Positions 47,466-60,580 of a stretch of 64,000 bases of DNA are shown here, piece after piece. The stretch lies in NCBI GenBank assembly GCA_963713605.1, contig CAVQMO010000015.1:32001-96000 (forward strand). The letters are read 5' to 3'. The notes under the pieces are model-generated. The model worked only from the letters and a program-made list of their open reading frames with translations, did not search any database and was not told the origin of the DNA. Position 1 is the first letter of the stretch, and each line of letters opens with the position of its first letter. Source of the DNA: an uncultured Nitrososphaerales archaeon (lineage in GTDB: Archaea; Thermoproteota; Nitrososphaeria; Nitrososphaerales; Nitrososphaeraceae). Position numbers and translations under genes: made by a program.

Positions 47466-47485
47466 GTACATTTCGACAAATGTAC
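47466..47485. promoter_or_regulatory. Palindromic operator candidate, site 1
   Basis: GTACATTTCGACAAATGTAC. Confidence 0.7.
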
Positions 47486-47541
47486 TATGGTTGCTTGTTT
47501 CTAAACTCATTTTCTAATCAATAATTTCAAATTTGCCCAAA

Positions 47542-47576
47542 CAATGTTCGAAAGATGTACCAATGATCTTAAATAC
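47542..47576 (+). promoter_or_regulatory. Operator site 2 plus TATA-like box
   Basis: CAATGTTCGAAAGATGTAC-8nt-TTAAATAC; ATG 30 nt after TATA start. Confidence 0.65.
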
Positions 47577-47598
47577 TTCATTCCGCCAGAATTGAATC

Positions 47599-48244
47599 AT
47601 GAAAAGCAAAATTCTTGCTGTTACTTCTATAATAAGTATTAGCATGGTATTGATTCTTGCATCTATTGGACTGCATCCTGTATCTGGACACGAAAGAAGA
47701 CTGTATACTATCGGCGATCAAAACTATCTCTTTGTAGTAGGTTCAATGAATGAGCCAGCGTTTGTGGACGACAAATCAGGGGTTGAAGTCTTCACATGGC
47801 TCGCCTGATCCGACCGATCCTATGAATTCCCAAGCAAATGGTACAAAGCCTATTGAAGGATTGACTCTCAAGGCAGATGTATCTGCAGGAGGAAAGAACA
47901 TGACCCTAGATCTGGAACCGGCATTCAGAGATCCAGGACATTACGAGGCAGTATTCTATCCAACAGTACCAACTACATACAACTATACAGTATATGGAGA
48001 TATTAATGGTACTGCATTCCGTGATACGTTCACATGCAGACCTGCTGGTGAATCAGAACCCGCCCAAGACAATTCAACGATAACTGTATCAGATGGTGTT
48101 ACTAGAATAGGTCAATCTGGAGGATTTGGTTGTTTCGAATCAAGAGCTGATGTGTCATTCCCAGAACAGTATGTATCAAATTACGAGCTACAACAGATGT
48201 TAAGCGAACTGCGGGGAACCTCTAACGCAACATCTCTGCCTTGA
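47599..48244 (+). CDS. Secreted protein with predicted mature N-terminal His (frameshift near 47803)
   Basis: VSG|HERRLY..VGSMNEP..PGHY; paralog of 51351. Confidence 0.75.
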
Positions 48245-48341
48245 ATACTGATAGATTCGTATGAGGAAGTCAGAACTAAATTTCTTTCCCTTTCTATTTT
48301 CTTATCATTCTGTTATTTGATAAGAAGGTTATTGAACATCT

Positions 48342-49856
48342 ATGTGGCTAGAACGTAAACATCTAATTATTACCCTATCAATACTATCCATTTTCATTAT
48401 ATCGATCATGCCTTTTACAACATTTATTCTACAAACTTTCTCGCAGGGTGAAGATATGTCTATGGTGATGACTAATTCAAATTCACAAGAAACCATCACC
48501 TCATATAAAGATGCTTTGATAAAAGCTCCGTTATTAGTGTCACAGATTGCAATAGTTGGGATAGTTTTTAATCACATTGTATTTTCAAAAGTGCTTCATA
48601 ACCGCATTCTAATAGAGCCAAATAGACCCAGTCAAATAATGCAAAAAGATATTGGGGCAGCTAGAAGAGTGTTCTTGATATTGATTCTGTCAGTTATAGT
48701 TCTGTTAGCTTCCAGCAGTGGGTTGTTCATCCTGGAGGTATATAATTTATCAGCAGAATTGGGGCTATCTTTCTCCGATACCTTTTCAATTGTATTGGAT
48801 ACTTCTGTTGGCACGGTCTGGCTTCTGAGGATTATCACTTCAATCTTGATTTTCATTCTGTTAATAATATACTATGTGTTAGTAAAGAGAAATATGATGA
48901 GTAGGAGGGAGAAGATAGATAGAGATAGCCGGAACAAGGCAAGTAACATTATCTTGTTATCTATTTTGATCCTAGGTTCAATAAATATCCTTTCGAATAG
49001 TATAGTAAGCCATAATGCTGCTGCGTCATTCTTTCCTGAGGTAGCAATATCTACTGATTGGTTACATGTGATGGCGGTTTCCATTTGGCTTGGAGGATTA
49101 TTCTATATATCAGCAATACTTCTTTATGCAATAAGAACTTCGAGTAAAAGAGAATATGAAACCAGTACAAAAGAAGAGCAAGTAGTAAGAAATTGCTACT
49201 CATTGGCAGTAATGCTTCCATATTTCTCAATTATTGCAATCATATGTTTAGGGGTGATCGGTATAAGTGGATTGTACATGGCTTGGCTTCAACTTCCATC
49301 AATAGGATCCATATTTGATTCATTATATGGAAATATCCTAATACTGAAGCTATGCGTTATCGTGCCAATGATCTTGTTAGGAGGCTACCACCAGATTAAA
49401 TTACATTTTGTCATGGTACAAATTGCACAACGAGGAAACAGGACACAAAAGCAATTTGAGATTTTACCAACCGTTGATCAAAAAAATTCTAGAGAAGTAC
49501 AAGGTGACAAAGGGCATTTCGACCCTTTTAATCGATTTTCTAAAACAATAAAGATCGAATCAATCATTGGAATTTTAGTTCTTGTGGTATCAGCATTTCT
49601 AACAATTACATCTCCTCCATCAATGCCAATGTCGGGCTCTCAGATGCAAATGCAAGGACTAGTTGGCACCAGTCCTAATAATGATGTGGGTGGTGGCGAG
49701 GAGCAACATAATCCTCGGACTTTTGATGGATTTACCATTATGGCATTAATTTTAGCTCTCGTTGTGTTGATTATGAGTCTGTATTACTACCGAAGGAGCA
49801 GGCTGGAATCAAAGATAACGGCAGATCTATTGAAGAAAAACGGATCATTATCTTAG
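48342..49856 (+). CDS. copD: CopD family copper uptake membrane protein
   Basis: SHNAA, DWLHVMAVSIWLGGLF, FS, SGLY, YGNILILK; many TMs. Confidence 0.88.
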   Translation: MWLERKHLIITLSILSIFIISIMPFTTFILQTFSQGEDMSMVMTNSNSQETITSYKDALIKAPLLVSQIAIVGIVFNHIVFSKVLHNRILIEPNRPSQIMQKDIGAARRVFLILILSVIVLLASSSGLFILEVYNLSAELGLSFSDTFSIVLDTSVGTVWLLRIITSILIFILLIIYYVLVKRNMMSRREKIDRDSRNKASNIILLSILILGSINILSNSIVSHNAAASFFPEVAISTDWLHVMAVSIWLGGLFYISAILLYAIRTSSKREYETSTKEEQVVRNCYSLAVMLPYFSIIAIICLGVIGISGLYMAWLQLPSIGSIFDSLYGNILILKLCVIVPMILLGGYHQIKLHFVMVQIAQRGNRTQKQFEILPTVDQKNSREVQGDKGHFDPFNRFSKTIKIESIIGILVLVVSAFLTITSPPSMPMSGSQMQMQGLVGTSPNNDVGGGEEQHNPRTFDGFTIMALILALVVLIMSLYYYRRSRLESKITADLLKKNGSLS

Positions 49857-49985
49857 GTCTAATTCAAGGCCTCTTAAAATCTGAATGCATAGTGATTTTT
49901 TATTTATCCCGTTAGTAGATACTAACTTCTGTCATTTTCTTCATCATATTATTAAATCCAATTAATAGCCTCATCCTGATTCTAT

Positions 49986-50020
49986 AATGTATCGAGAGAA
50001 GTACTATAATGTTTATGAAT
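49986..50020 (+). promoter_or_regulatory. Degenerate operator site 3 plus TATA-like box before copC
   Basis: AATGTATCGAGAGAAGTAC-8nt-TTATGAAT; ATG at 50040. Confidence 0.45.
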
Positions 50021-50039
50021 GTGGAAAGGGAATAAATTC

Positions 50040-50871
50040 ATGCAGAAGCTGATATACTACATGGAAAAACTTCACTATTGTAATAGGAATAGATCAATTA
50101 TGCTATTGACACTTTTGATTTCATTTACCATTCTCACCCTTTTAATTGGCAATATGATTGTTCAATATGCCTATGCACATGCCAACCCTATTTCATTTTT
50201 GCCTAAGTCCAATTCGATTATCTCAGAAACTAAGAACCTACCTCAGAAAGTAGTAATCATTTACTCTGAAAGACCAGAACCAAAAGCTAGCTATATTCAC
50301 GTAACTGATTCCCATAATGAACGAATAGACAAAAACGATTACAAGATTAATGCAGATAATCCTAGAGAGGCTTCAGTTTTTATGGATACCTCAAAATTAA
50401 AACAAGGAGTGTACACAGTTACTTGGCTTGCGTTGTCAAAGGACGATGGTCATATTACAAAGGGTTCATATGTATTTAGTATTGCTAGTGCAGCTAATCC
50501 ACCAAAAACAGGTAATATATCGAGTAATGCTTTTGTCAACAGTACCTATCATAGACAACGTAAATACTACGTATAAAATATCTCCATTCTATTCCGGAAT
50601 AAATAATAATTTTACTGTTTCGTTATCTGACCTAGAAGGTAACGCCCATGCCAATATTAAGGCCGTTTTTCTAATATTCAATAACAAACAGGCAGGATTA
50701 GGACCAATAACTGCTAATTTAACTAAGGTGGGCGAAGGTGAGTATAGCGGATCGGGTGGATATCTTAGTCAACCAGGTAACTGGGAAGTGACGTTTGTGG
50801 CTCAAAGAACCAATAACTACGATCTTAATCATAGATTTACTATCAATGTAAAAAATCCTCCTACAATATGA
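50040..50871 (+). CDS. copC: CopC periplasmic copper-binding domain plus YtkA/FixH-like domain (frameshift near 50548)
   Basis: AYA|HANP..YSERPE..GVYTVTW..SKDDGHITKG; LSQPGNWEV. Confidence 0.85.
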
Positions 50872-51206
50872 CTCCGATGTAGTTCTAATAGGCCTACATG
50901 AGGCTAAACTGATTAGAGTAGTACTGGAGAAGATTTCCTTTGCGTTTGATCTACCTATAAGTGAGATGACCTCGCGCATGCCATTCTCATGAACAGAAGA
51001 CAAGGTCGTCATTTGTTGCCTTTATCAATAGCTAATACGCTTTTTATGGAGATATCATTGAAATCCGAGTGCAATCTAACTAAAAGTATTTTTCAATTAT
51101 GAATGCAAAGACATCATTCGTGATATCATTTTTGATTAAATTCACATCTATTGATATTAAAGTAAGTTATAACAGTTCGCAAGTATATTAATTTGACCAC
51201 AGGAAT

Positions 51207-51229
51207 TAGTACATTCGTCGAATGCACTA
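51207..51229. promoter_or_regulatory. Palindromic operator site 4
   Basis: TAGTACATTCG-T-CGAATGCACTA (1 mismatch). Confidence 0.75.
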
Positions 51230-51350
51230 TGAATAGTCCAAATTATTATGTAAATAAGAGCTAACTATACTATAATGTGACTCTCCAAGTTTAGGAACCC
51301 AGTAATTTGGTTCCGTAAAACATATCTCTATCCTAAACATCTTATGGGCA

Positions 51351-52019
51351 TTGAGAAGTAAATTTACTTCCATTTCCGTTCTGCTAGGAGTAATGACTAT
51401 TGCTGCACTGTTACTTTTTTCAATGTCCAACAAAGGTCTAGTATATGCTCATCAGAAACAACTTTACACAATTGGAAATAATAAGTATCTGTTTGCTGCA
51501 GGATTCCTGAATGAACCTGTCTATTTGGACGACAAATCTGGAGTTGACTTGTACGTGTATACACCTGATCCAAAGGATCCTATGAGTACAGACTCAAATT
51601 CAACAAAGCCTGTAGAGGAGTTACAAGATTCTCTCAAGGCAGAGATATCTGCCGGTCCAAAAACAAAAGTTCTTGACTTGGAACCTGATGAAGAGCAGCC
51701 AGGACATTATACAGCATCCTTTATTCCAGATGTCGAAACGACCTACAAATTCCGGATCTTTGGAAATTTAAGTGGAAGTCCGATTGGCATTGATTTTTCA
51801 TGTAGCCCAGGGGCAGTTTCTGAGGATACCATAATAAGCAATTCTACAGAAAAGATTTCTGACACAGTAACGAGAAATGGAGTAATAGGAGGTTATGAGT
51901 GCCCGGCACCCAGATCTGATGGAGCGTTTCCTGAGCCAATTCTATCAAACGCTGATATAGGCAAGAAGCTTTCTGAATTAGAAAACAGAGTTTCAGCATT
52001 GGAGAATGCAACTAAATAG
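51351..52019 (+). CDS. Secreted protein with predicted mature N-terminal His
   Basis: VYA|HQKQLY..GFLNEP..PGHY; two conserved Cys; C-terminal coiled coil. Confidence 0.8.
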   Translation: MRSKFTSISVLLGVMTIAALLLFSMSNKGLVYAHQKQLYTIGNNKYLFAAGFLNEPVYLDDKSGVDLYVYTPDPKDPMSTDSNSTKPVEELQDSLKAEISAGPKTKVLDLEPDEEQPGHYTASFIPDVETTYKFRIFGNLSGSPIGIDFSCSPGAVSEDTIISNSTEKISDTVTRNGVIGGYECPAPRSDGAFPEPILSNADIGKKLSELENRVSALENATK

Positions 52020-52129
52020 AATAAATGATCTCTACTTTTTTCAGTGCAGGTAGCAATTAAAATACAATTGAAGATCATCGTTTTAAATTTAGTGAATGTA
52101 TTGAAGAATAACATGGATTATTCATCAAG

Positions 52130-52754
52130 ATGTTGCGAAGCCGATCATTTTTTCTAATTCTAACATTTATTATCCTTAGTATTGGTATCGTTAATTCAAG
52201 TAGCAGTAATAATATCTTTAAGTTTGTATCAAATGGATCCATGCTAGCATTTGCACAAACAGTTTCATTAACTAATAATGAGAATAATAACCAAACACAA
52301 CAGCAACAATGGGTAGACAAGGTGAATAACATAAGAATTCTATTCAGCTCTCCTGTTAGCCCAATAATCGATTCAAGGACTCAGTTAAAATTTGATGTAC
52401 AAAATCTGACAACAAACGAAAATATTAAAGATCTAAGCGGCAAGAGTCACAATAGCAACTAATAGCAGTGGTCAGCTAAGAACATTCAAGTATACTAACA
52501 TATCATCTATTAATGGTAGTTTTGCCATAAGTTATATTTTTCCCGATTCAGGGATATATCAAATACTAACTAGAGTAGATTTAAAGGATTTCTCTTCTCT
52601 GGCATCATTCAATGTAGATGTTCCAGTTCAGCCATCTAATGCACTTAATCCGTCAAGCTCAGCTTTTTATCCTATGGTTATTACTATTGTAGTAGTTGCT
52701 GGCATTATTGCAGGTATAGGAATATGGGTAATGCGTAAAAGAAGGAGTAGGTAG
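52130..52754 (+). CDS. Membrane-anchored Ig/YtkA-like protein (frameshift near 52440); paralog of 2493
   Basis: PIIDSRTQLKF.. then YIFPDSGIYQI..ASFNV, C-terminal TM and RKRR. Confidence 0.7.
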
Positions 52755-52915
52755 AAGGAGTATCACAATCTTAGGAATTAAAATACTATGTATCGGATCC
52801 TTTTATGGCTTTGTACAAATGGAAAAGAAAGAGTTTCTAAATTAGAAATTCTTGTTGTAACTAACTTATTATATGAGGTAAAGACTAAACTAAACTAGCC
52901 GAAACTAAAGTTATA

Positions 52916-54044
52916 TTACATTGAACCCATCGAACCAGCAGCCATAGACGAATTCGTTCCTACTTTTACCTCTGAAGGCTGTAATTCAAACTTCATCAGC
53001 CCATTAAATGCTTGTTGTTGTGAAGCCAGTTGCTGCCTGCGGCTGCGAGGATTGCTCTTGTTCCTTATTAGTATTAGTATTATTATTAACTCGTTTTGCC
53101 AAGTTAAGCAGAGTATCCTTTGTCAACATAATATGGATTACATCAGTTTTAGGATCAGTATTATCCAACACAATATCTTTTGTGACATCTAATCCATTTA
53201 CCGTGCCCGAATAAGAACTCGTATTAGTGAAGGCATTTGATTTAGGAACATTTATTTCTTCATGCACAAAAATATTGGCTTTCTTCAATCTGTCAATATT
53301 CCAATCAAAAGGCATACTGAATTGCATCTGCTTATTTTTTTCATTAAAGTTAAACCCATTCAATTTATCATAATATGAAATAATATTAATTGGAACATGT
53401 TTGCTATCTACATTTATCTGTCTATTTAATGTAGATCCTATGCTGAGCCAACTGTCATAGACATGTTGCTGATCAGCCGGAAGCACACAAGTATCACAAT
53501 CGATTGTTCCTATTCTAACTTTAAAATGGTACAATCCACCTTTTAGAAATATTGGTCCAGCCGCCTCCACAGGATTATCTGGTGTTCCAACATATGATCC
53601 TATAAGTGGCTCCTGTTCGCCATCAATTTTTACTATGCCTGTACTGTTATTTGGTGCTATTTCAATTCCCAATATGCCATTATGAGAATGGAACCAATTT
53701 GAAAACAGTTGTTTATTATCTTTATCTAGTATAGAAATATCATAATTCACATGATTAAATGATTTATTCGTCAGTGGATCAAATAATCTGAATTCAATTA
53801 TTGGTTTTTCATGTTTTGTTTGGAGGGTTTCCGTAGTCACAACTGAAGGGTTCATCTTTATCAGCAAATCTGATTGTCTATTACCTAACGATGCTGATGT
53901 CTGTTCCTGTGTCAAGCCATCTGCATAAGCAAGGTTAGTTATAGATGTTCTGTTAATAGCAAATAGCAGAATTAAAGCTATTAAAGAGAAGATACTGCAA
54001 ATTATGATACAAGATACAAACGAAGCAGCTCGTCTAGCAATCAA
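52916..54044 (-). CDS. Secreted thaumarchaeal protein (frameshift near C-terminus)
   Basis: Signal AYA|DG, FHSHNG, GPIFLKGGLYHF, CDTC, SYYD, MPFDW, VHEE. Confidence 0.75.
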
Positions 54045-54152
54045 TACCCGTATTCCTTGTTAGTAAATATTGTGTGTTTAGCTATTTTAGGCTTATGGTA
54101 TGAGCAAGGTATTCTTGTTTCATTGATATATAAATAGTTACTATGCAAGAGA

Positions 54153-54171
54153 GTACATTCGTTAAATGTAC
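54153..54171. promoter_or_regulatory. Palindromic operator site 5
   Basis: GTACATTCGTTAAATGTAC. Confidence 0.7.
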
Positions 54172-54291
54172 CACAAAATCTAATGGTAGGTAAAGCTCGT
54201 TGAGATAGCTTAAGAATTCGTAATAGGTCCAAATTCTTCGTTATTGTATATGGAATCTTTAATACATGCTATCTGTTATACAATCTATCTA

Positions 54292-54326
54292 GAACATTCG
54301 TCGGATGTACCACATTCTTTAATACA
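54292..54326 (+). promoter_or_regulatory. Operator site 6 plus TATA-like box
   Basis: GAACATTCGTCGGATGTAC-8nt-TTAATACA. Confidence 0.65.
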
Positions 54327-54456
54327 TGCCCAGGTAAACTTTCAATTATTGCATTTTGAAAAATAATTAGAATTTCTTTAGCAATCTGAACGTTCTATTG
54401 AACTAGTCAACAGAATCATGTGTGAGTGCCAAGTAGTGGTATATCCAAAATAACAC

Positions 54457-55023
54457 CTATAGCTTGTCAATAATACCCGTATAATTCTCTATAATGCGAT
54501 CTGTGAAGCTTTCTTTGTACTCTAGCAATACCCGATTGATCGTTATCTTATCTGCAACGCTATAAAGAAAATGGTCATTTCCATAGTTCGTGTTGAGTAT
54601 TCCAGCTTCTTTCAGCCTTTTGATATGCCAAGAAACGGTAGATGGAGCCTTGCCAATGTGATCTACAATTTCATTAAATGTACAAAATTCGTTCTTAAGC
54701 ATAAAAAACACAATGCTTCTAACAACATTACTTCTAAAGCAGCCTATAATATCAGAATCTCTTTTTGTTATATTGACAACAAAGTACCTTGTTACCCTAT
54801 TATTGCTCTGTCTTTCTACTCTAATCTCTCCGCTTTTCTCCAGTTTACCTAAATGATAAGATAAAACACCATTAGTCGTTCCAGATAACCTTATCAACTC
54901 CCTGTATCTTATTCCAGGATTTTCACATATGTAACTATAGATATCTTTTAGCAAATCACCTGAGCTGGGCACAAGATATTGTCCTGAAGTTGAATGGATA
55001 CTTTTATTATCTAAACTAGACAT
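54457..55023 (-). CDS. Double winged-helix transcriptional regulator (COG3398-like)
   Basis: NPGIRYRELIR..GVLSYHLGKLEK and TFNEIV..KAPSTVSWHIKRL. Confidence 0.85.
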   Translation of the reverse strand: MSSLDNKSIHSTSGQYLVPSSGDLLKDIYSYICENPGIRYRELIRLSGTTNGVLSYHLGKLEKSGEIRVERQSNNRVTRYFVVNITKRDSDIIGCFRSNVVRSIVFFMLKNEFCTFNEIVDHIGKAPSTVSWHIKRLKEAGILNTNYGNDHFLYSVADKITINRVLLEYKESFTDRIIENYTGIIDKL

Positions 55024-55457
55024 TATCTAGAGTTCACCTTTACAATGCCTATACCAAATAGGGCCAACATGGCAAATAGGATAATATGTGGTAATTCAAT
55101 GTTAACCCCTGGAATCAGTATATCCTGAATACCCCTGGCGGCATAGAAAAGAAATAGAATCTCCACTACGACAAGCGAAACAAACCCTAACGACATAAAC
55201 AACAATCTCGAACCGCCATTTCTAAAGTATGATGATAATGAAACAATACACAAGAAGATCGATAGTATTAGACTTGCAATGTGAAGAATGATATGATAAA
55301 TGTGTTGTGGGTGATTAATGTGTGGAATAATTAGTGGAATAGCCAGGATCGAAATTACAATTACTGAAACAAGAATGAAGAGTGTTGGTTTTTCAGAAAG
55401 AATGTTATTAATAATCATGCGTGATTTTCTGACAGAGTATACATGTTTCCTTTCCAT
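55023..55457 (-). CDS. His-rich 4-TM membrane protein
   Basis: IPHINHPQHIYHIILH, ELPH; TAATG overlap with regulator. Confidence 0.75.
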   Translation of the reverse strand: MERKHVYSVRKSRMIINNILSEKPTLFILVSVIVISILAIPLIIPHINHPQHIYHIILHIASLILSIFLCIVSLSSYFRNGGSRLLFMSLGFVSLVVVEILFLFYAARGIQDILIPGVNIELPHIILFAMLALFGIGIVKVNSR

Positions 55458-55579
55458 TTTCGCTCTTATAATTTTAAGTCTAGATCTATACTATCCGATC
55501 ATATCATAACCTAAAACAAATGACAACAAAAAAGTAAGTTGAAGCAGATAGTCTGACCTCGTCTTCACTATCTATAATT

Positions 55580-56124
55580 TTATGACCCTGTACTATTTGT
55601 TGCCTCCGCACCATCTCCATGTTCTCCTTCCTCTGCTCCAGGAGCAATTTTATTAATGCCTATGACTACTGTACTCCCAGGCGGAAATTCTAAACTATCT
55701 GTACCAGGATTTGCAATAGCTATATCTGTAATTACTTCTTCTTGTGGGGCAATATCAACATGGTAAAGACACATTTCTCCTGGAGCTGATAATTCCGGTA
55801 GATTTTCTAATTCGGCGAGCCGTGAAATTAGGCGCTTGCCCTAGTAGAACTTGAATGCTAGCAGTTGAGTTGTCTTCACATGGAACATTCACTGCAACAT
55901 GTCCATTCATTATCATATATGGTGTGGCATCATACAGATGAATAAACTTCCCAGCGGGAATGCTTGTTCCCTCAAGAAGCTCTGCTACTGAATCACGTAC
56001 TACGGTAGCGGGCCCCCTGGGCAAGCGTCGGTTGGATAATGTTATTCAGTCCATTTGTACTAAATCCCATTAGTCCAGCAATTATAAATCCAAGACAGAG
56101 AAACTTTGCATTTAATTCTCGCAT
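55580..56124 (-). CDS. Secreted His/Met/Cys-containing protein (two frameshifts)
   Basis: MRELNAKFLCLGF signal; FIHLYDATPYMIMNGHVAVNVPC; MCLYHVDI. Confidence 0.7.
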
Positions 56125-56145
56125 AGAATTTTGATCTATTCAACT

Positions 56146-56180
56146 TTAATTAAGCATTGTGGTACATTCGTCGAATGAAT
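56146..56180 (-). promoter_or_regulatory. Operator site 7 plus TATA-like box
   Basis: Minus strand ATTCATTCGACGAATGTAC-8nt-TTAATTAA; ATG 29 nt after TATA start. Confidence 0.7.
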
Positions 56181-58853: not shown

Positions 58854-59547
58854 ATGGCAGCGGCGACAACAACGGCAACAACTACAACTGAAACCACTAC
58901 AGCCTCTATTAAAGGTGAAATTCCAAACTGGAGAGTTACAGGTGATTGGTTTGACGTTTGTAAGTGCAACATACCATGTCCTTGTGAGTTTGCCCAAACT
59001 CCAACGTATGGCGACGGTATTTTAGCTTATAATATCAAAAAAGGCAATTATGGTGAAATTCACCTTGATGGCTTGAGTGTAATAGCCGTGGGTAGCTTCG
59101 AAGGTAATATCTGGGCAGGCGATGGCAAAACAAAAGTGGATCTTGCACTATTTTTTTGACGAGAAAGCAAATGAACAGCAAAGAGAAGCACTGAATATGA
59201 TTTTTAGTGGAAAGGCCGGTGGTTTTATGGCGGAGTTTGTAAAGCTTATTGGAGAAGTTCGGGGAATTGAATACGCTCCTATCAAGTTTGAGTTGGCAGA
59301 TGATTTATTCTATTGGAGTGCAGAGATACCCGGAAAAGTTTTTGCAAAAGCTGAGGCATTAACAGGCCCTACGACGCCGCCTGGTAAACGCGTTCAAACT
59401 ATTAACCCGCCTGGTAGTGAGGTAGGACCTGGAGGAGTTGCAACTTGGGGGATATCTCTTGCTGACGAAGTCGATACAATAGGCTTCAAATGGAAAAGAA
59501 AAGGTAGATCAAGTAAGCATATTCCATTTGATTGGAGCGGACCATGA
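58854..59547 (+). CDS. DUF1326 protein (frameshift in T7 run near 59150)
   Basis: GDWFDVCKCNIPCPC, DEKANEQQREAL..IFSG, FDWSGP. Confidence 0.85.
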
Positions 59548-59605
59548 AATCTACTAACTATATAAATGAACTTGAGTAATCAACTTACTACCCAATATTA
59601 GCATT

Positions 59606-60580
59606 ATGAAAACTTCTTCATCCATAAAAATTATTATTGTAGTTATATCAATCTCTATATTTACTTGGTTCGTATCGATATGGCAGTATGATACTATGAT
59701 GTCTTCTATAATGACATATTACTATAGTCCAGTAGCATTATCATTGTTTGCAATAATATGGACTGCGGGTATGGCTGCTATGATGTTCCCAGCTATAATA
59801 CCAATGATTCTTTTCTACAATAGACTCATTGATAGTAGTAAAGGCAACAAAGGTAATTTCCATTCTTATAATAGTAGTCAGGTGTTATATCATGGACAGA
59901 ATGATACCCACAGTGATACGGATAACAACAATAAAAATTATAATAGGATACCAAGTTCGGTAAATCAAGATCAAAATAAACATAGAAAGATCTACAATCT
60001 AAGCTATGTGTTCAGACCCAAGATTTATTATATGATGATTTTCATATTATCATATCTCGCAATCTGGGCAATAACTGGGATAGTACTGCTCATTGGATGG
60101 TCTTATGCCTTAGACATATTATTAGCACAATTGGGAATAAATGATATTCAACATCAGCAGGTACAACAGCAAAAGGAGCAACTATCGATAAATACTATAT
60201 ATGGAGTCCTGCTGATCATATCTGGGATCTATCAATTTAGCTCGCTAAAAGCCAAATGTCTTGGATATTGTGAATCTCCTCTTAGTTTCTTTATGAGGAG
60301 ATGGCGGAAGGGAGCAGTGGGAGCGGTGAAGATGGGAACATATCATGGCCTATATTGTCTCGGTTGTTGCTGGCCCTACTTTTTACTTATGGTAGCATTA
60401 GGATGGATGAATATTATCTGGATGGGTCTGTTTGCGGCCATCATCTTTGCTGAAAAGATTTGGGCTAAAGGCGGGCTCTGGATCGCTAGAATCACTGGTA
60501 TCTGCCTCATAACTATTGGAATTCTATCTTTGACTGGGATGATACTGCTTCCTTCTGATCCTATGAGTAGGTACTCGTGA
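59606..60580 (+). CDS. DUF2182 predicted metal-binding membrane protein
   Basis: MAAMMFP, YQFSSLKAKCLGYC, YCLGCCW, EK. Confidence 0.9.
   Translation: MKTSSSIKIIIVVISISIFTWFVSIWQYDTMMSSIMTYYYSPVALSLFAIIWTAGMAAMMFPAIIPMILFYNRLIDSSKGNKGNFHSYNSSQVLYHGQNDTHSDTDNNNKNYNRIPSSVNQDQNKHRKIYNLSYVFRPKIYYMMIFILSYLAIWAITGIVLLIGWSYALDILLAQLGINDIQHQQVQQQKEQLSINTIYGVLLIISGIYQFSSLKAKCLGYCESPLSFFMRRWRKGAVGAVKMGTYHGLYCLGCCWPYFLLMVALGWMNIIWMGLFAAIIFAEKIWAKGGLWIARITGICLITIGILSLTGMILLPSDPMSRYS

Follow-up and report, generated by a model that had tools for sequence, protein, structure and literature searches.

Organization of the locus

The window, that is, the whole 64-kb stretch of archaeal DNA that was analysed, contains a cluster of copper and exported-protein genes that is interspersed with seven copies of a short sequence, referred to here as the box. 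On the forward strand, the cluster begins with a gene for an exported protein of family K2 (47599..48244), which has an invariant histidine at its mature N-terminus and carries a 1-nt insertion near 47802 relative to its orthologues. It is followed by copD (48342..49856; Pfam PF05425, E 9e-17), copC (50040..50871; PF04234, E 4e-12) and an exported K2 paralogue (51351..52019). The copC gene is split over two frames, whereas relatives and the paralogue on contig C12 have it as one ORF of about 270 aa. The reverse strand encodes an exported protein that recurs in these clusters and has no putative function assigned to it (53004..54044), a tandem winged-helix regulator with an HVO_0163-type N-terminal domain and an ArsR-like HTH (54457..55023), a predicted sensor modelled as a four-helix membrane protein (55023..55457), and an exported protein of family K6 with conserved His/Cys residues, present in pieces (55580..56124), whose gene is the first of the regulator operon. 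The stop codon of the membrane-protein gene overlaps the start of the regulator gene.

The first box (47466..47485, no strand assigned) is a full palindrome with one extra T, and lies distally, 76 bp 5' of the second (47542..47574, +), where the proximal core alone and a TATA at 47569 form the promoter of the exported-protein/copD unit. A decayed box with a TATA at 50013 belongs to the copC promoter (49986..50018, +), and a box with 1 mismatch and no canonical TATA at +8 is found 5' of the second K2 gene (51209..51227, no strand assigned). The box at 54153..54171, likewise unoriented and with 2 mismatches, is a putative promoter element with no target gene or RNA assigned, and that at 54292..54345 (+), with a TATA at 54319, is the promoter of a predicted small RNA directed against nirK. 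Finally, the box at 56162-56180 and its TATA make up the promoter (56147..56180, -) of the K6-membrane protein-regulator operon, which is predicted to be autoregulated.

A bipartite core at a fixed distance from TATA

The original prediction described the box as a 19-bp palindromic operator present at seven sites. At a threshold of up to 2 mismatches to that 19-mer, four of the seven (51209, 54153, 54292 and 56162) match, as against 0.03 sites expected by chance in the window, and four were reached in 0 of 100 shuffles. The other three are off-pattern: the 47466 site is a 20-bp version with one T added, which does not fit the 19-mer as written, and those at 47542 and 49986 have 7 and 10 mismatches, respectively. 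All three keep the promoter-proximal core despite their poor palindrome fit, and the sites at 47467 and 47542 fit the core TTCS-N5-TGWAC-YA exactly. With a scoring matrix built from 65 oriented sites of relatives, from which the genome under study was left out, the 56162-56180 box ranks 2nd genome-wide, 47542 8th, 47466 16th and 49986 1262nd. The positions of the three off-pattern sites are conserved in relatives: the place orthologous to 47466 in genome G033 holds a canonical 19-mer, the 47542 box is kept in 6 of 9 compared loci of the downstream K2 family, and the 49986 position is kept, with a better core, in 6/6 same-genus copC promoters and in the genome's own paralogue. The 51209 box is conserved in G076 and the 54153 box in G070 and G303. 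A scan of the 64-kb window found no copies beyond the seven, as had been claimed.

The conserved unit is a bipartite, non-palindromic core, and the full palindrome, first taken to be the operator, is present at a subset of the sites. From the end of the core, TTCG-N5-TGWAC-YA, it is about 8 nt to TATA and about 37 nt to the start codon. Among 126 strict sites, the commonest positions are +7 to +11 for the TATA-like start and +37 for the ATG, with the box 5' of TATA at a fixed spacing and never overlapping TATA or the start. In the window, the distance from box to TATA-like sequence is 8 nt at 47542, 49986, 54292 and 56162 (-), and an ATG lies 30, 27 and 29 nt past the TATA start at 47542, 49986 and 56162 (-), with none at 54292. 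The predicted geometry (8-nt spacing at four sites, ATG 27-30 nt on at three) is thereby confirmed, and the fixed spacing in relatives agrees with the activator-type position proposed with it. The frequency of A at -3/-2 was 0.26/0.10 (n=39) versus 0.37/0.28 (n=89), in a comparison where the crude genome control itself has little BRE signal and a weak BRE did not stand out clearly.

Distribution of the box

Sites within 2 mismatches number five genome-wide, compared with 0 in three order-4 Markov simulations. The genome has more sites than those in the window. Further boxes at C3:27038, C3:27159, C12:155738, C12:157278 and C12:158704 each adjoin paralogues of genes in the window cluster, and two more are at C10:40774 and C12:122039. 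The box pattern is present in 88 of 121 family genomes, a tally in which the unpublished genome G034 is one row that carries no claim, and a reversed control in about 20. Across the class, boxes were found in 17/18 genomes of the organism's own family, 60/131 of a second family and 2/51 others, and marine relatives also have them.

A rule combining core and TATA matches 66 of 84 membrane genes, 29/59 genes of family K4, 20/37 of K6 and 20/82 of K2, against a background of only 8 among 1085 other ORFs. A looser pattern of core and TATA was too noisy for per-genome counts in AT-rich genomes, and of its output only the listed positions were used. The box precedes the membrane-protein/regulator operon and genes for exported proteins that lie 5' of copC/D; it is directly 5' of 3 of 48 copC/D genes themselves, and a related-locus search with copD returned a single, unrelated locus. 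In the second family, genomes that carry the membrane gene are box-positive in 41 of 86 cases, versus 4 of 45 of those that do not; these counts span related genomes that are not independent, and the regulator could merely travel with the copper island. Three of those 4 matches are inside ORFs, as is a match in at least 2 of the 41, and the co-occurrence drops to 45/86 versus 15/45 (p 0.044) when 15 genomes whose matches are all recurrent in-ORF ones stay in the count. The regulon extends beyond the copCD cluster and the protein genes originally envisaged: boxes occur elsewhere, and the one at 54292 serves as promoter for a predicted small RNA.

The link to copper limitation

The motif, which the original prediction did not recognize, was published in 2020 as a sequence upstream of copper-limitation-induced genes of Nitrososphaera viennensis (Reyes et al.; PMC7785015). 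The published consensus, TTCSGSMTTTGWACYANT, is 18 nt long, one-sided and derived from one species. Compared by eye, it has the same core and spacing as the window box, and the N. viennensis site at NVIE_1457 departs from the window palindrome by 2 mismatches and has a TATA 8 nt on; the consensus differs in being one-sided, and the main text of the paper contains 0 occurrences of 'palindrom'. Genes with the motif are up 2.7- to 46-fold (log2FC 1.4-5.5) under copper limitation (PMC7785015, Dataset S1), and the most induced gene, MCO4_b, is without it. The N. viennensis motif starts 35-70 nt before gene starts, and the ATG peak 37 nt past the end of the box described here accords with that distance. 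The likeness extends to the copC/D cluster, where N. viennensis has a hypothetical gene with the motif and an ArsR-type regulator next to copC/D, both induced (PMC7785015). The published induction supports the proposal of a copper-limitation regulon, with a motif that is neither new nor confined to the cluster, and the box is very probably a copper-limitation promoter box.

There is perhaps one chance in several that the true signal is envelope, redox or cuproprotein-maturation stress sensed by the membrane protein, maybe through heme or another metal, with copper limitation being one trigger of several. Biofilms and nitrification inhibitors (DMPP/ATU) also induce the cluster, in work whose authors saw no evidence of copper limitation, copC/D of N. 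maritimus falls under copper limitation (log2FC -1.7), and marine boxes are also found 5' of MoxR-AAA, CHRD and pentapeptide genes. The invariant histidines of the membrane protein could equally bind heme or zinc. Set against this, members of the regulon include copC/D units as well as exported proteins whose mature N-terminus is an invariant His, and the predicted target of the RNA is a copper enzyme, in two families whose start sequences are unrelated.

The candidate reader and its membrane partner

The 54457 regulator, already named in the original prediction, remains the best candidate for the protein that binds the box. A membrane gene is directly 5' of 65 of 74 regulator genes, and it is these membrane genes that have the box in 66 of 84 cases; the box 5' of the pair is more constant than any other of the regulon, being found in every clade checked, even site-poor ones. 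From this linkage, the regulator is a likely reader of the box. It is not an ArsR/SmtB metalloregulator, as it has two wHTH domains, scores 41.6 with NCBIfam, below the cut-off of 55, and has no invariant Cys/His or metal-ligand cluster in 75 sequences. Unlike CopT/CopR, it showed no TRASH/YHS domain in a Pfam scan. For the second HTH, the NCBIfam family that matches best (E 1e-12, though far under the cut-off) is MsvR of methanogens, a redox-sensing V4R-domain dimer that likewise uses TTCG half-sites, arranged as TTCG-N7-9-CGAA (PMC3729527); the regulator differs in having no V4R hit, and its site in spacing.

The membrane protein has conserved residues at H46, H49, H55, H59, H124, E99 and E121. 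Fold searches with its model yielded nothing specific, with no Foldseek match at E<=0.001 and a best Z of 9.3 to generic helical bundles, and an Atlas search returned unnamed Nitrososphaerota clusters with weak DUF7471/DUF7521 leads under 0.9. That it acts as the copper sensor has a little less than an even chance. Among known copper systems, CopR answers copper excess, and in the cyanobacterial PetRP a soluble regulator is coupled to a copper sensor in the membrane, PetP being a protease and PetR a repressor. The pair described here would resemble CopR/CopT and PetR/PetP in linking copper to transcription, and PetRP also in combining membrane sensor and soluble regulator, but it is without TRASH/YHS and differs from the protease and repressor of PetRP.

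It is unlikely that the same box and regulon are served by another reader, be it CopT/CopR, the response regulator of a two-component system, a protein of the Lrp type or an alternative TFB, with the double-HTH/membrane pair as a mere member. Gene linkage and a box before the operon would be expected of any regulon member, Reyes et al. suggested a pair resembling CopRS and named three CopT genes (PMC7785015), and an Lrp-family SELEX site has a GTTCGA half. However, in N. viennensis CopT is not induced and the ArsR-type gene is (PMC7785015), the box before the pair is the most constant of all, strict boxes fall to nearly background level without the pair, and a bipartite core suits a chain with two HTH domains.

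Boxes without ORFs and a predicted anti-nirK RNA

Strong TATA-bearing boxes lack a downstream ORF in 87 of 190 cases. These often precede hairpin RNAs, 36 of the 87 folding better than shuffles, and six RNA loci gave no Rfam match. The orphan set contains some false orphans, for example frameshifted genes. The predicted small RNAs have their own box-bearing promoter, no ORF and a 3' hairpin. On comparison with G033, the 54292 site is the promoter of such a predicted RNA whose seed is deleted here, about 79 nt, with the seed and the hairpin's 5' arm among them, being missing right after 54324; the C12 copy of the locus is decayed. With the G033 orthologue as query, the nirK-like gene of this genome comes out on top among 8397 start regions, with a score of 45.5 versus 32.5 for the runner-up (mean 12.8, sd 3.2). 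The candidate RNAs from G007, G021, C3:27038, C12:155738, 54153 and the deleted 54292 yielded no outstanding target in this genome.

Because a marine NirK query missed the soil-family genes at E<=1e-20, the genome's own nirK-like gene was used as query; for both target families, the closest PDB matches are copper nitrite reductases. Pairing with a nirK-like start at p<0.01 was found for 10 of 63 candidate RNAs, in 9 of 32 genomes and 7 genera, as against about 0.6 expected under a null that used this genome's start regions for all candidates. Three of the ten are discovery cases, so that seven are left after their removal, and one (L038) looks like chance. The pairings co-vary, each RNA fitting its own genome's differing nirK start in two target families with unrelated start sequences, and against the nirK of other genomes the median scores are the same as the null. 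An anti-nirK RNA is accordingly a probable product of these predicted promoters. The largest marine genus gave no nirK pairing, and targeted searches for a target of the genus g18 RNA found none; amoA as that target found no support, and only the RNA's own locus matched consistently.

That the ORF-less boxes are instead leftover promoters or the reverse face of palindromes, the hairpins terminators and the nirK pairing chance appears quite improbable. Such a reading draws on the 53 of 63 candidates without pairing at p<0.01, including every one from g18, on the false orphans in the set, and on the deleted window copy and decayed C12 copy. It is opposed by ten matches where about 0.6 are expected, across 7 genera and with the own genome's nirK start only, and by the first rank of the nirK-like gene among 8397.

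A model for the regulon

We put at roughly 0.6 the probability of our main reading, in which the box is a copper-limitation promoter element, likely bound by the two-HTH activator, that serves copper capture, the activator's own operon and an anti-NirK RNA. Each of the two HTH domains would read one part of the core, and the palindrome would represent two interleaved cores on opposite strands. The bound regulator may recruit TFB, as TFB-RF1 does. The His-rich membrane partner would bind copper and keep the regulator inactive until copper falls, whereupon the active regulator would switch on the copper-capture genes, its own operon and the predicted small RNA, which could cover the nirK start codon and block NirK translation. 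An RNA in this position would therefore free copper for essential enzymes such as ammonia monooxygenase. The box regulon, together with box-driven RNAs that pair with nirK-like starts, suggests a copper-sparing circuit; that all of this forms one ancient, shared copper-economy circuit, in which the membrane sensor gates an activator of both copper capture and a NirK-silencing sRNA, is a tentative proposal that we rate at less than even.

The closest layout is that of TFB-RF1 (PF1088)/PF1089 of Pyrococcus furiosus, where the gene of an activator follows that of a four-TM protein in an operon under autoregulation (PMC5937170). The likeness lies in the gene order and predicted autoregulation, as seen in the pairing and box counts above, and in the place of the site, which for TFB-RF1 is just 5' of BRE/TATA and here just 5' of TATA. 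TFB-RF1 differs in its 13-nt palindromic site, which is of different sequence, and in its ABC exporter targets, with no inducing signal named (PMC5937170). A search for TFB-RF1 homologues with a published primer gave 0 metagenome matches, and neither protein had a homologue in the 113 loci given by a motif-plus-TATA scan. The reader of the box is probably an activator, and a repressor operator released when copper is low is very unlikely: the ArsR-like HTH fold and the approach of the last two conserved bases to within about 6 nt of TATA, where TFB binds, would favor one, but the box keeps a constant distance 5' of TATA and nowhere covers TATA or the start, no metal-ligand cluster is conserved in the regulator, and the layout matches that of the activator TFB-RF1.

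Small RNAs that repress dispensable metalloproteins under shortage include RyhB in bacteria, for iron, and the SPL7-driven copper microRNAs of plants; IsrR is a further iron-related, metal-sparing RNA of bacteria. The predicted RNA resembles them in that a short RNA would repress a dispensable metalloprotein while uptake genes are on, and differs in being archaeal and copper-linked, with an activator-type position in place of repressor release and the nirK start as predicted target.

Significance for ammonia-oxidizing archaea

Ammonia-oxidizing archaea rely on copper enzymes, and NirK is a copper enzyme with a debated role in archaeal ammonia oxidation. In the 2020 motif study, the binding protein is unnamed and copper regulation is called an open question, and no small RNA is reported in the parts of it examined (PMC7785015). 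Our searches of the literature, which was mostly open-access, found no prior report of a regulator or sRNA for this box, and the term 'copper-sparing' has 0 occurrences in the papers listed by one of them. The present work names one candidate regulator, one candidate sensor and an exact site, in a regulon conserved in soil, marine and other clades. A point against the model is that the nirK mRNA of N. viennensis is nearly flat under copper limitation (-0.31). If the model is true, the anti-nirK RNA would mark NirK as dispensable relative to ammonia monooxygenase, and copper-dependent shifts in NO/N2O output, which mRNA-level surveys can miss, would be expected. It would then constitute a prokaryotic copper-sparing sRNA, one that ties copper supply to NO/N2O-linked chemistry in both soil and marine nitrifiers.

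The published motif and its response to copper

The box, a 19-bp palindrome with the core TTCG-N5-TGWAC-YA, had not been recognised as a described motif, but it and its link to copper are already known: Reyes et al. (2020; PMC7785015) record 12 occurrences of TTCSGSMTTTGWACYANT ahead of genes that copper limitation induces near copC/D in N. viennensis. As printed there, the consensus shares the register TTC-N6-TGWAC-YA with the window box, and the NVIE_1457 site differs by eye from the window palindrome at 2 positions, with a TATA 8 nt later. Adjoining copC/D, the paper's cluster table lists NVIE_014290, hypothetical and motif-bearing (log2FC 2.7), and NVIE_014280, of the ArsR family (log2FC 2.5), which from order and annotation we infer to be the counterparts of the window genes at 55023-55457 (-) and 54457-55023 (-), respectively. 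The authors give no binding protein for the motif. In a 2025 paper, NVIE_014290 is termed a putative cation channel.

Induction by copper limitation, as originally predicted, is published for boxed genes of N. viennensis (PMC7785015). Several observations speak against a simple copper response: in N. maritimus, copC/D transcripts decrease under copper limitation, N. viennensis nirK mRNA is little altered by it, MCO4_b of N. viennensis is without the motif, and the cluster is also described as responsive to biofilm growth and inhibitors. Dataset S1 of PMC7785015 contains a second motif, of copper-repressed genes, adjoining an ArsR-V4R regulator that is a candidate reader, listed but apparently left unassigned by the authors.

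Form and range of the box

Among the seven sites proposed in the window, four match the palindrome at two or fewer mismatches (0.03 expected), while the other three (47466, 47542 and 49986) differ at 6-10 positions and draw support from orthologous promoters. Site 47466 carries an extra T, with a canonical 19-mer at the same place in the compared genome G033; six of 9 loci compared share the 47542 core; and all 6/6 same-genus copC promoters, like this genome's own paralogue, have a box at the 49986 position, and its core is better there (20 regions were fetched, of which 10 had no copC match to the query and 4, from other genera, were mixed). The copD, copC and winged-helix regulator identities were all confirmed by Pfam. 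The 4.09-Mb genome holds five sites at up to two mismatches and eight at up to three, against 0 and 1-3, respectively, in three Markov simulations. Two further box clusters, on contigs C3 and C12, adjoin paralogues of the window-cluster genes, and strong boxes also stand alone, away from copper genes, at C10:40774 and C12:122039.

The palindrome, at two or fewer mismatches, extends to 88 of 121 family genomes (about 20 for a reversed control). Class-wide the tally is 17/18 genomes for the organism's own family, 60/131 for a second one and 2/51 for the others, and in three more families core-only boxes stand ahead of these gene families too. Its placement just upstream of TATA is borne out by 126 distinct strict sites, both directions pooled, in which TATA-like hexamers peak 7-11 nt past the box and ATG at 37.

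The palindromic operator itself stands at some sites only. When sites were chosen by TGWAC-YA plus TATA alone, the TTCG part was retained (TT 80-100%, C 70-90% in four of five families), whereas the distal GTAC and inner CGAA were close to background at membrane-gene boxes, with only partial retention elsewhere, which argues that the conserved, functional unit is a bipartite core. The palindrome would then represent two such cores on opposite strands.

The likely reader

The family of the 54457-55023 regulator, present in 110/121 family genomes and with a predicted structure of two winged helices, is the likely reader of the box. No conserved metal ligands were found in the aligned regulator family. 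Immediately upstream of the regulator in 65 of 74 cases lies the membrane gene, whose product, modeled with four membrane helices and predicted to be a sensor, shows no variation at H59 and H124 and next to none at H46, H49, H55, E99 and E121 (75 sequences). By a matrix-free rule, the box precedes 66/84 membrane genes, 29/59 genes of family K4, 20/37 of K6, 20/82 of K2 and 10/77 of K3, and only 3/48 copC/D genes and 8/1085 other ORFs, many of the latter spurious. In the second family, 41/86 genomes with the membrane gene are box-positive vs 4/45 without it, kin not being independent and 15 genomes having been dropped whose sole matches are recurrent strings, inside ORFs in three inspected loci; with these kept, the figures are 45/86 vs 15/45. 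Matches inside ORFs account for three of the four positives lacking the membrane gene and at least two of the 41 others.

Membership of ArsR, CopT or MsvR was ruled out by the features tested. In G157, a genome from an order outside the ammonia oxidizers and with 8% contamination, a membrane gene and regulator (L327) have five core-only boxes near them and one more on a different contig.

Genes of the regulon

The majority of boxes precede exported proteins without a Pfam family. The predicted mature proteins of both K2 and K4 begin with a His that is invariant or nearly so, as CopC likewise does, and K6 has conserved His and Cys. The copC/D genes mostly lie downstream of K2 and seldom have their own box. 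In the marine genomes of loci L193, L197 and L204 the box is also found upstream of a MoxR AAA-ATPase operon and of CHRD- and pentapeptide-repeat genes. Just beyond the window cluster, a DUF1326 gene and a PpoB2-type 'copper chaperone' gene (58854-60580) have no box.

A predicted anti-nirK small RNA

The box at 54292 is directed towards the 3' end of the regulator gene and has no ORF after it, an arrangement found at 7/88 regulator loci. This orphan box is predicted to be the promoter of an anti-nirK small RNA. No ORF of at least 60 codons follows 87 of 190 strong TATA-bearing boxes, a set that includes false orphans, and for 36 of these 87 a comparison with 8 shuffles apiece gives a hairpin at z<-2. 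The sequence ahead of the hairpin in G283 and G301 is complementary, for about 20 nt, to the beginning of a gene for a 445-aa protein (duplex -33.8 and -30.7 kcal/mol, respectively), the best PDB matches of which are copper nitrite reductases. For the G033 transcript, whose promoter is orthologous to 54292, C10:656288 ranks top among 8397 start regions of the window genome (45.5, next 32.5; mean 12.8, sd 3.2); tblastn with the marine protein likewise puts this gene first, and it too matches copper nitrite reductases. Targets are termed nirK-like because they were called by such matches, not by catalytic residues.

Against a null of 2799 window-genome start regions, 63 orphan transcripts from 32 genomes with a nirK-like start were scored, the other 24 of the 87 lacking such a start or being duplicates. 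Pairing with the genome's own nirK-like start reached p<0.01 in 10/63 (about 0.6 expected) and p<0.02 in 13/63, and the median score against other genomes' nirK equaled the null. The ten are spread over 9 genomes and 7 genera with differing start sequences; discovery cases account for three of them, and another is probably due to chance. Some bulged duplexes (e.g. L147, -34.8) escape the ungapped score.

Within that test, no orphan transcript of g18, the largest marine genus, pairs with a nirK-like start, and its loci L189:7703, L191, L195 and L193 have a conserved, box-driven predicted RNA that forms a hairpin and whose 5' stretch is invariant. In genus g2, where a nirK match is absent in all five genomes searched, box-driven predicted transcripts that fold into strong hairpins (z -3 to -8) lie upstream of the regulator operon (L051, L052, L055). 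On both counts, the predicted RNAs must have targets besides nirK.

State of the island in this genome

Some 79 nt, the seed among them, are missing at 54324, just downstream of the TATA of the 54292 copy. The C12 copy of the locus shows decay (p 0.04), and elsewhere in the window genome the search found no intact anti-nirK seed. Assembly error is possible, because 1-nt indels are frequent in the cluster genes; true decay of paralogous islands is also conceivable. At least four genes within 47599-56124 are frameshift-split (K2, copC, the 52130 gene and K6), as is the DUF1326 gene at 58854-59547. K2 is broken by a 1-nt insertion that five orthologues and this genome's own paralogue lack, which suggests assembly indels or decay of the island. 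The island paralogues have a broken regulator (C3:27038-28979), one apparently absent behind the membrane gene (C12:155738-162214) and a partial one (C13:16977-18151), and the window copy is the sole intact orthologue found.

A putative metal-sparing regulon

Literature searches returned no earlier report of the class-wide range and bipartite reading of the box, the regulator-sensor assignment or the anti-nirK RNA. In layout, the regulator and membrane-gene pair matches TFB-RF1/PF1089. By analogy, the system would behave as a metal-sparing regulon whose activator recruits TFB.
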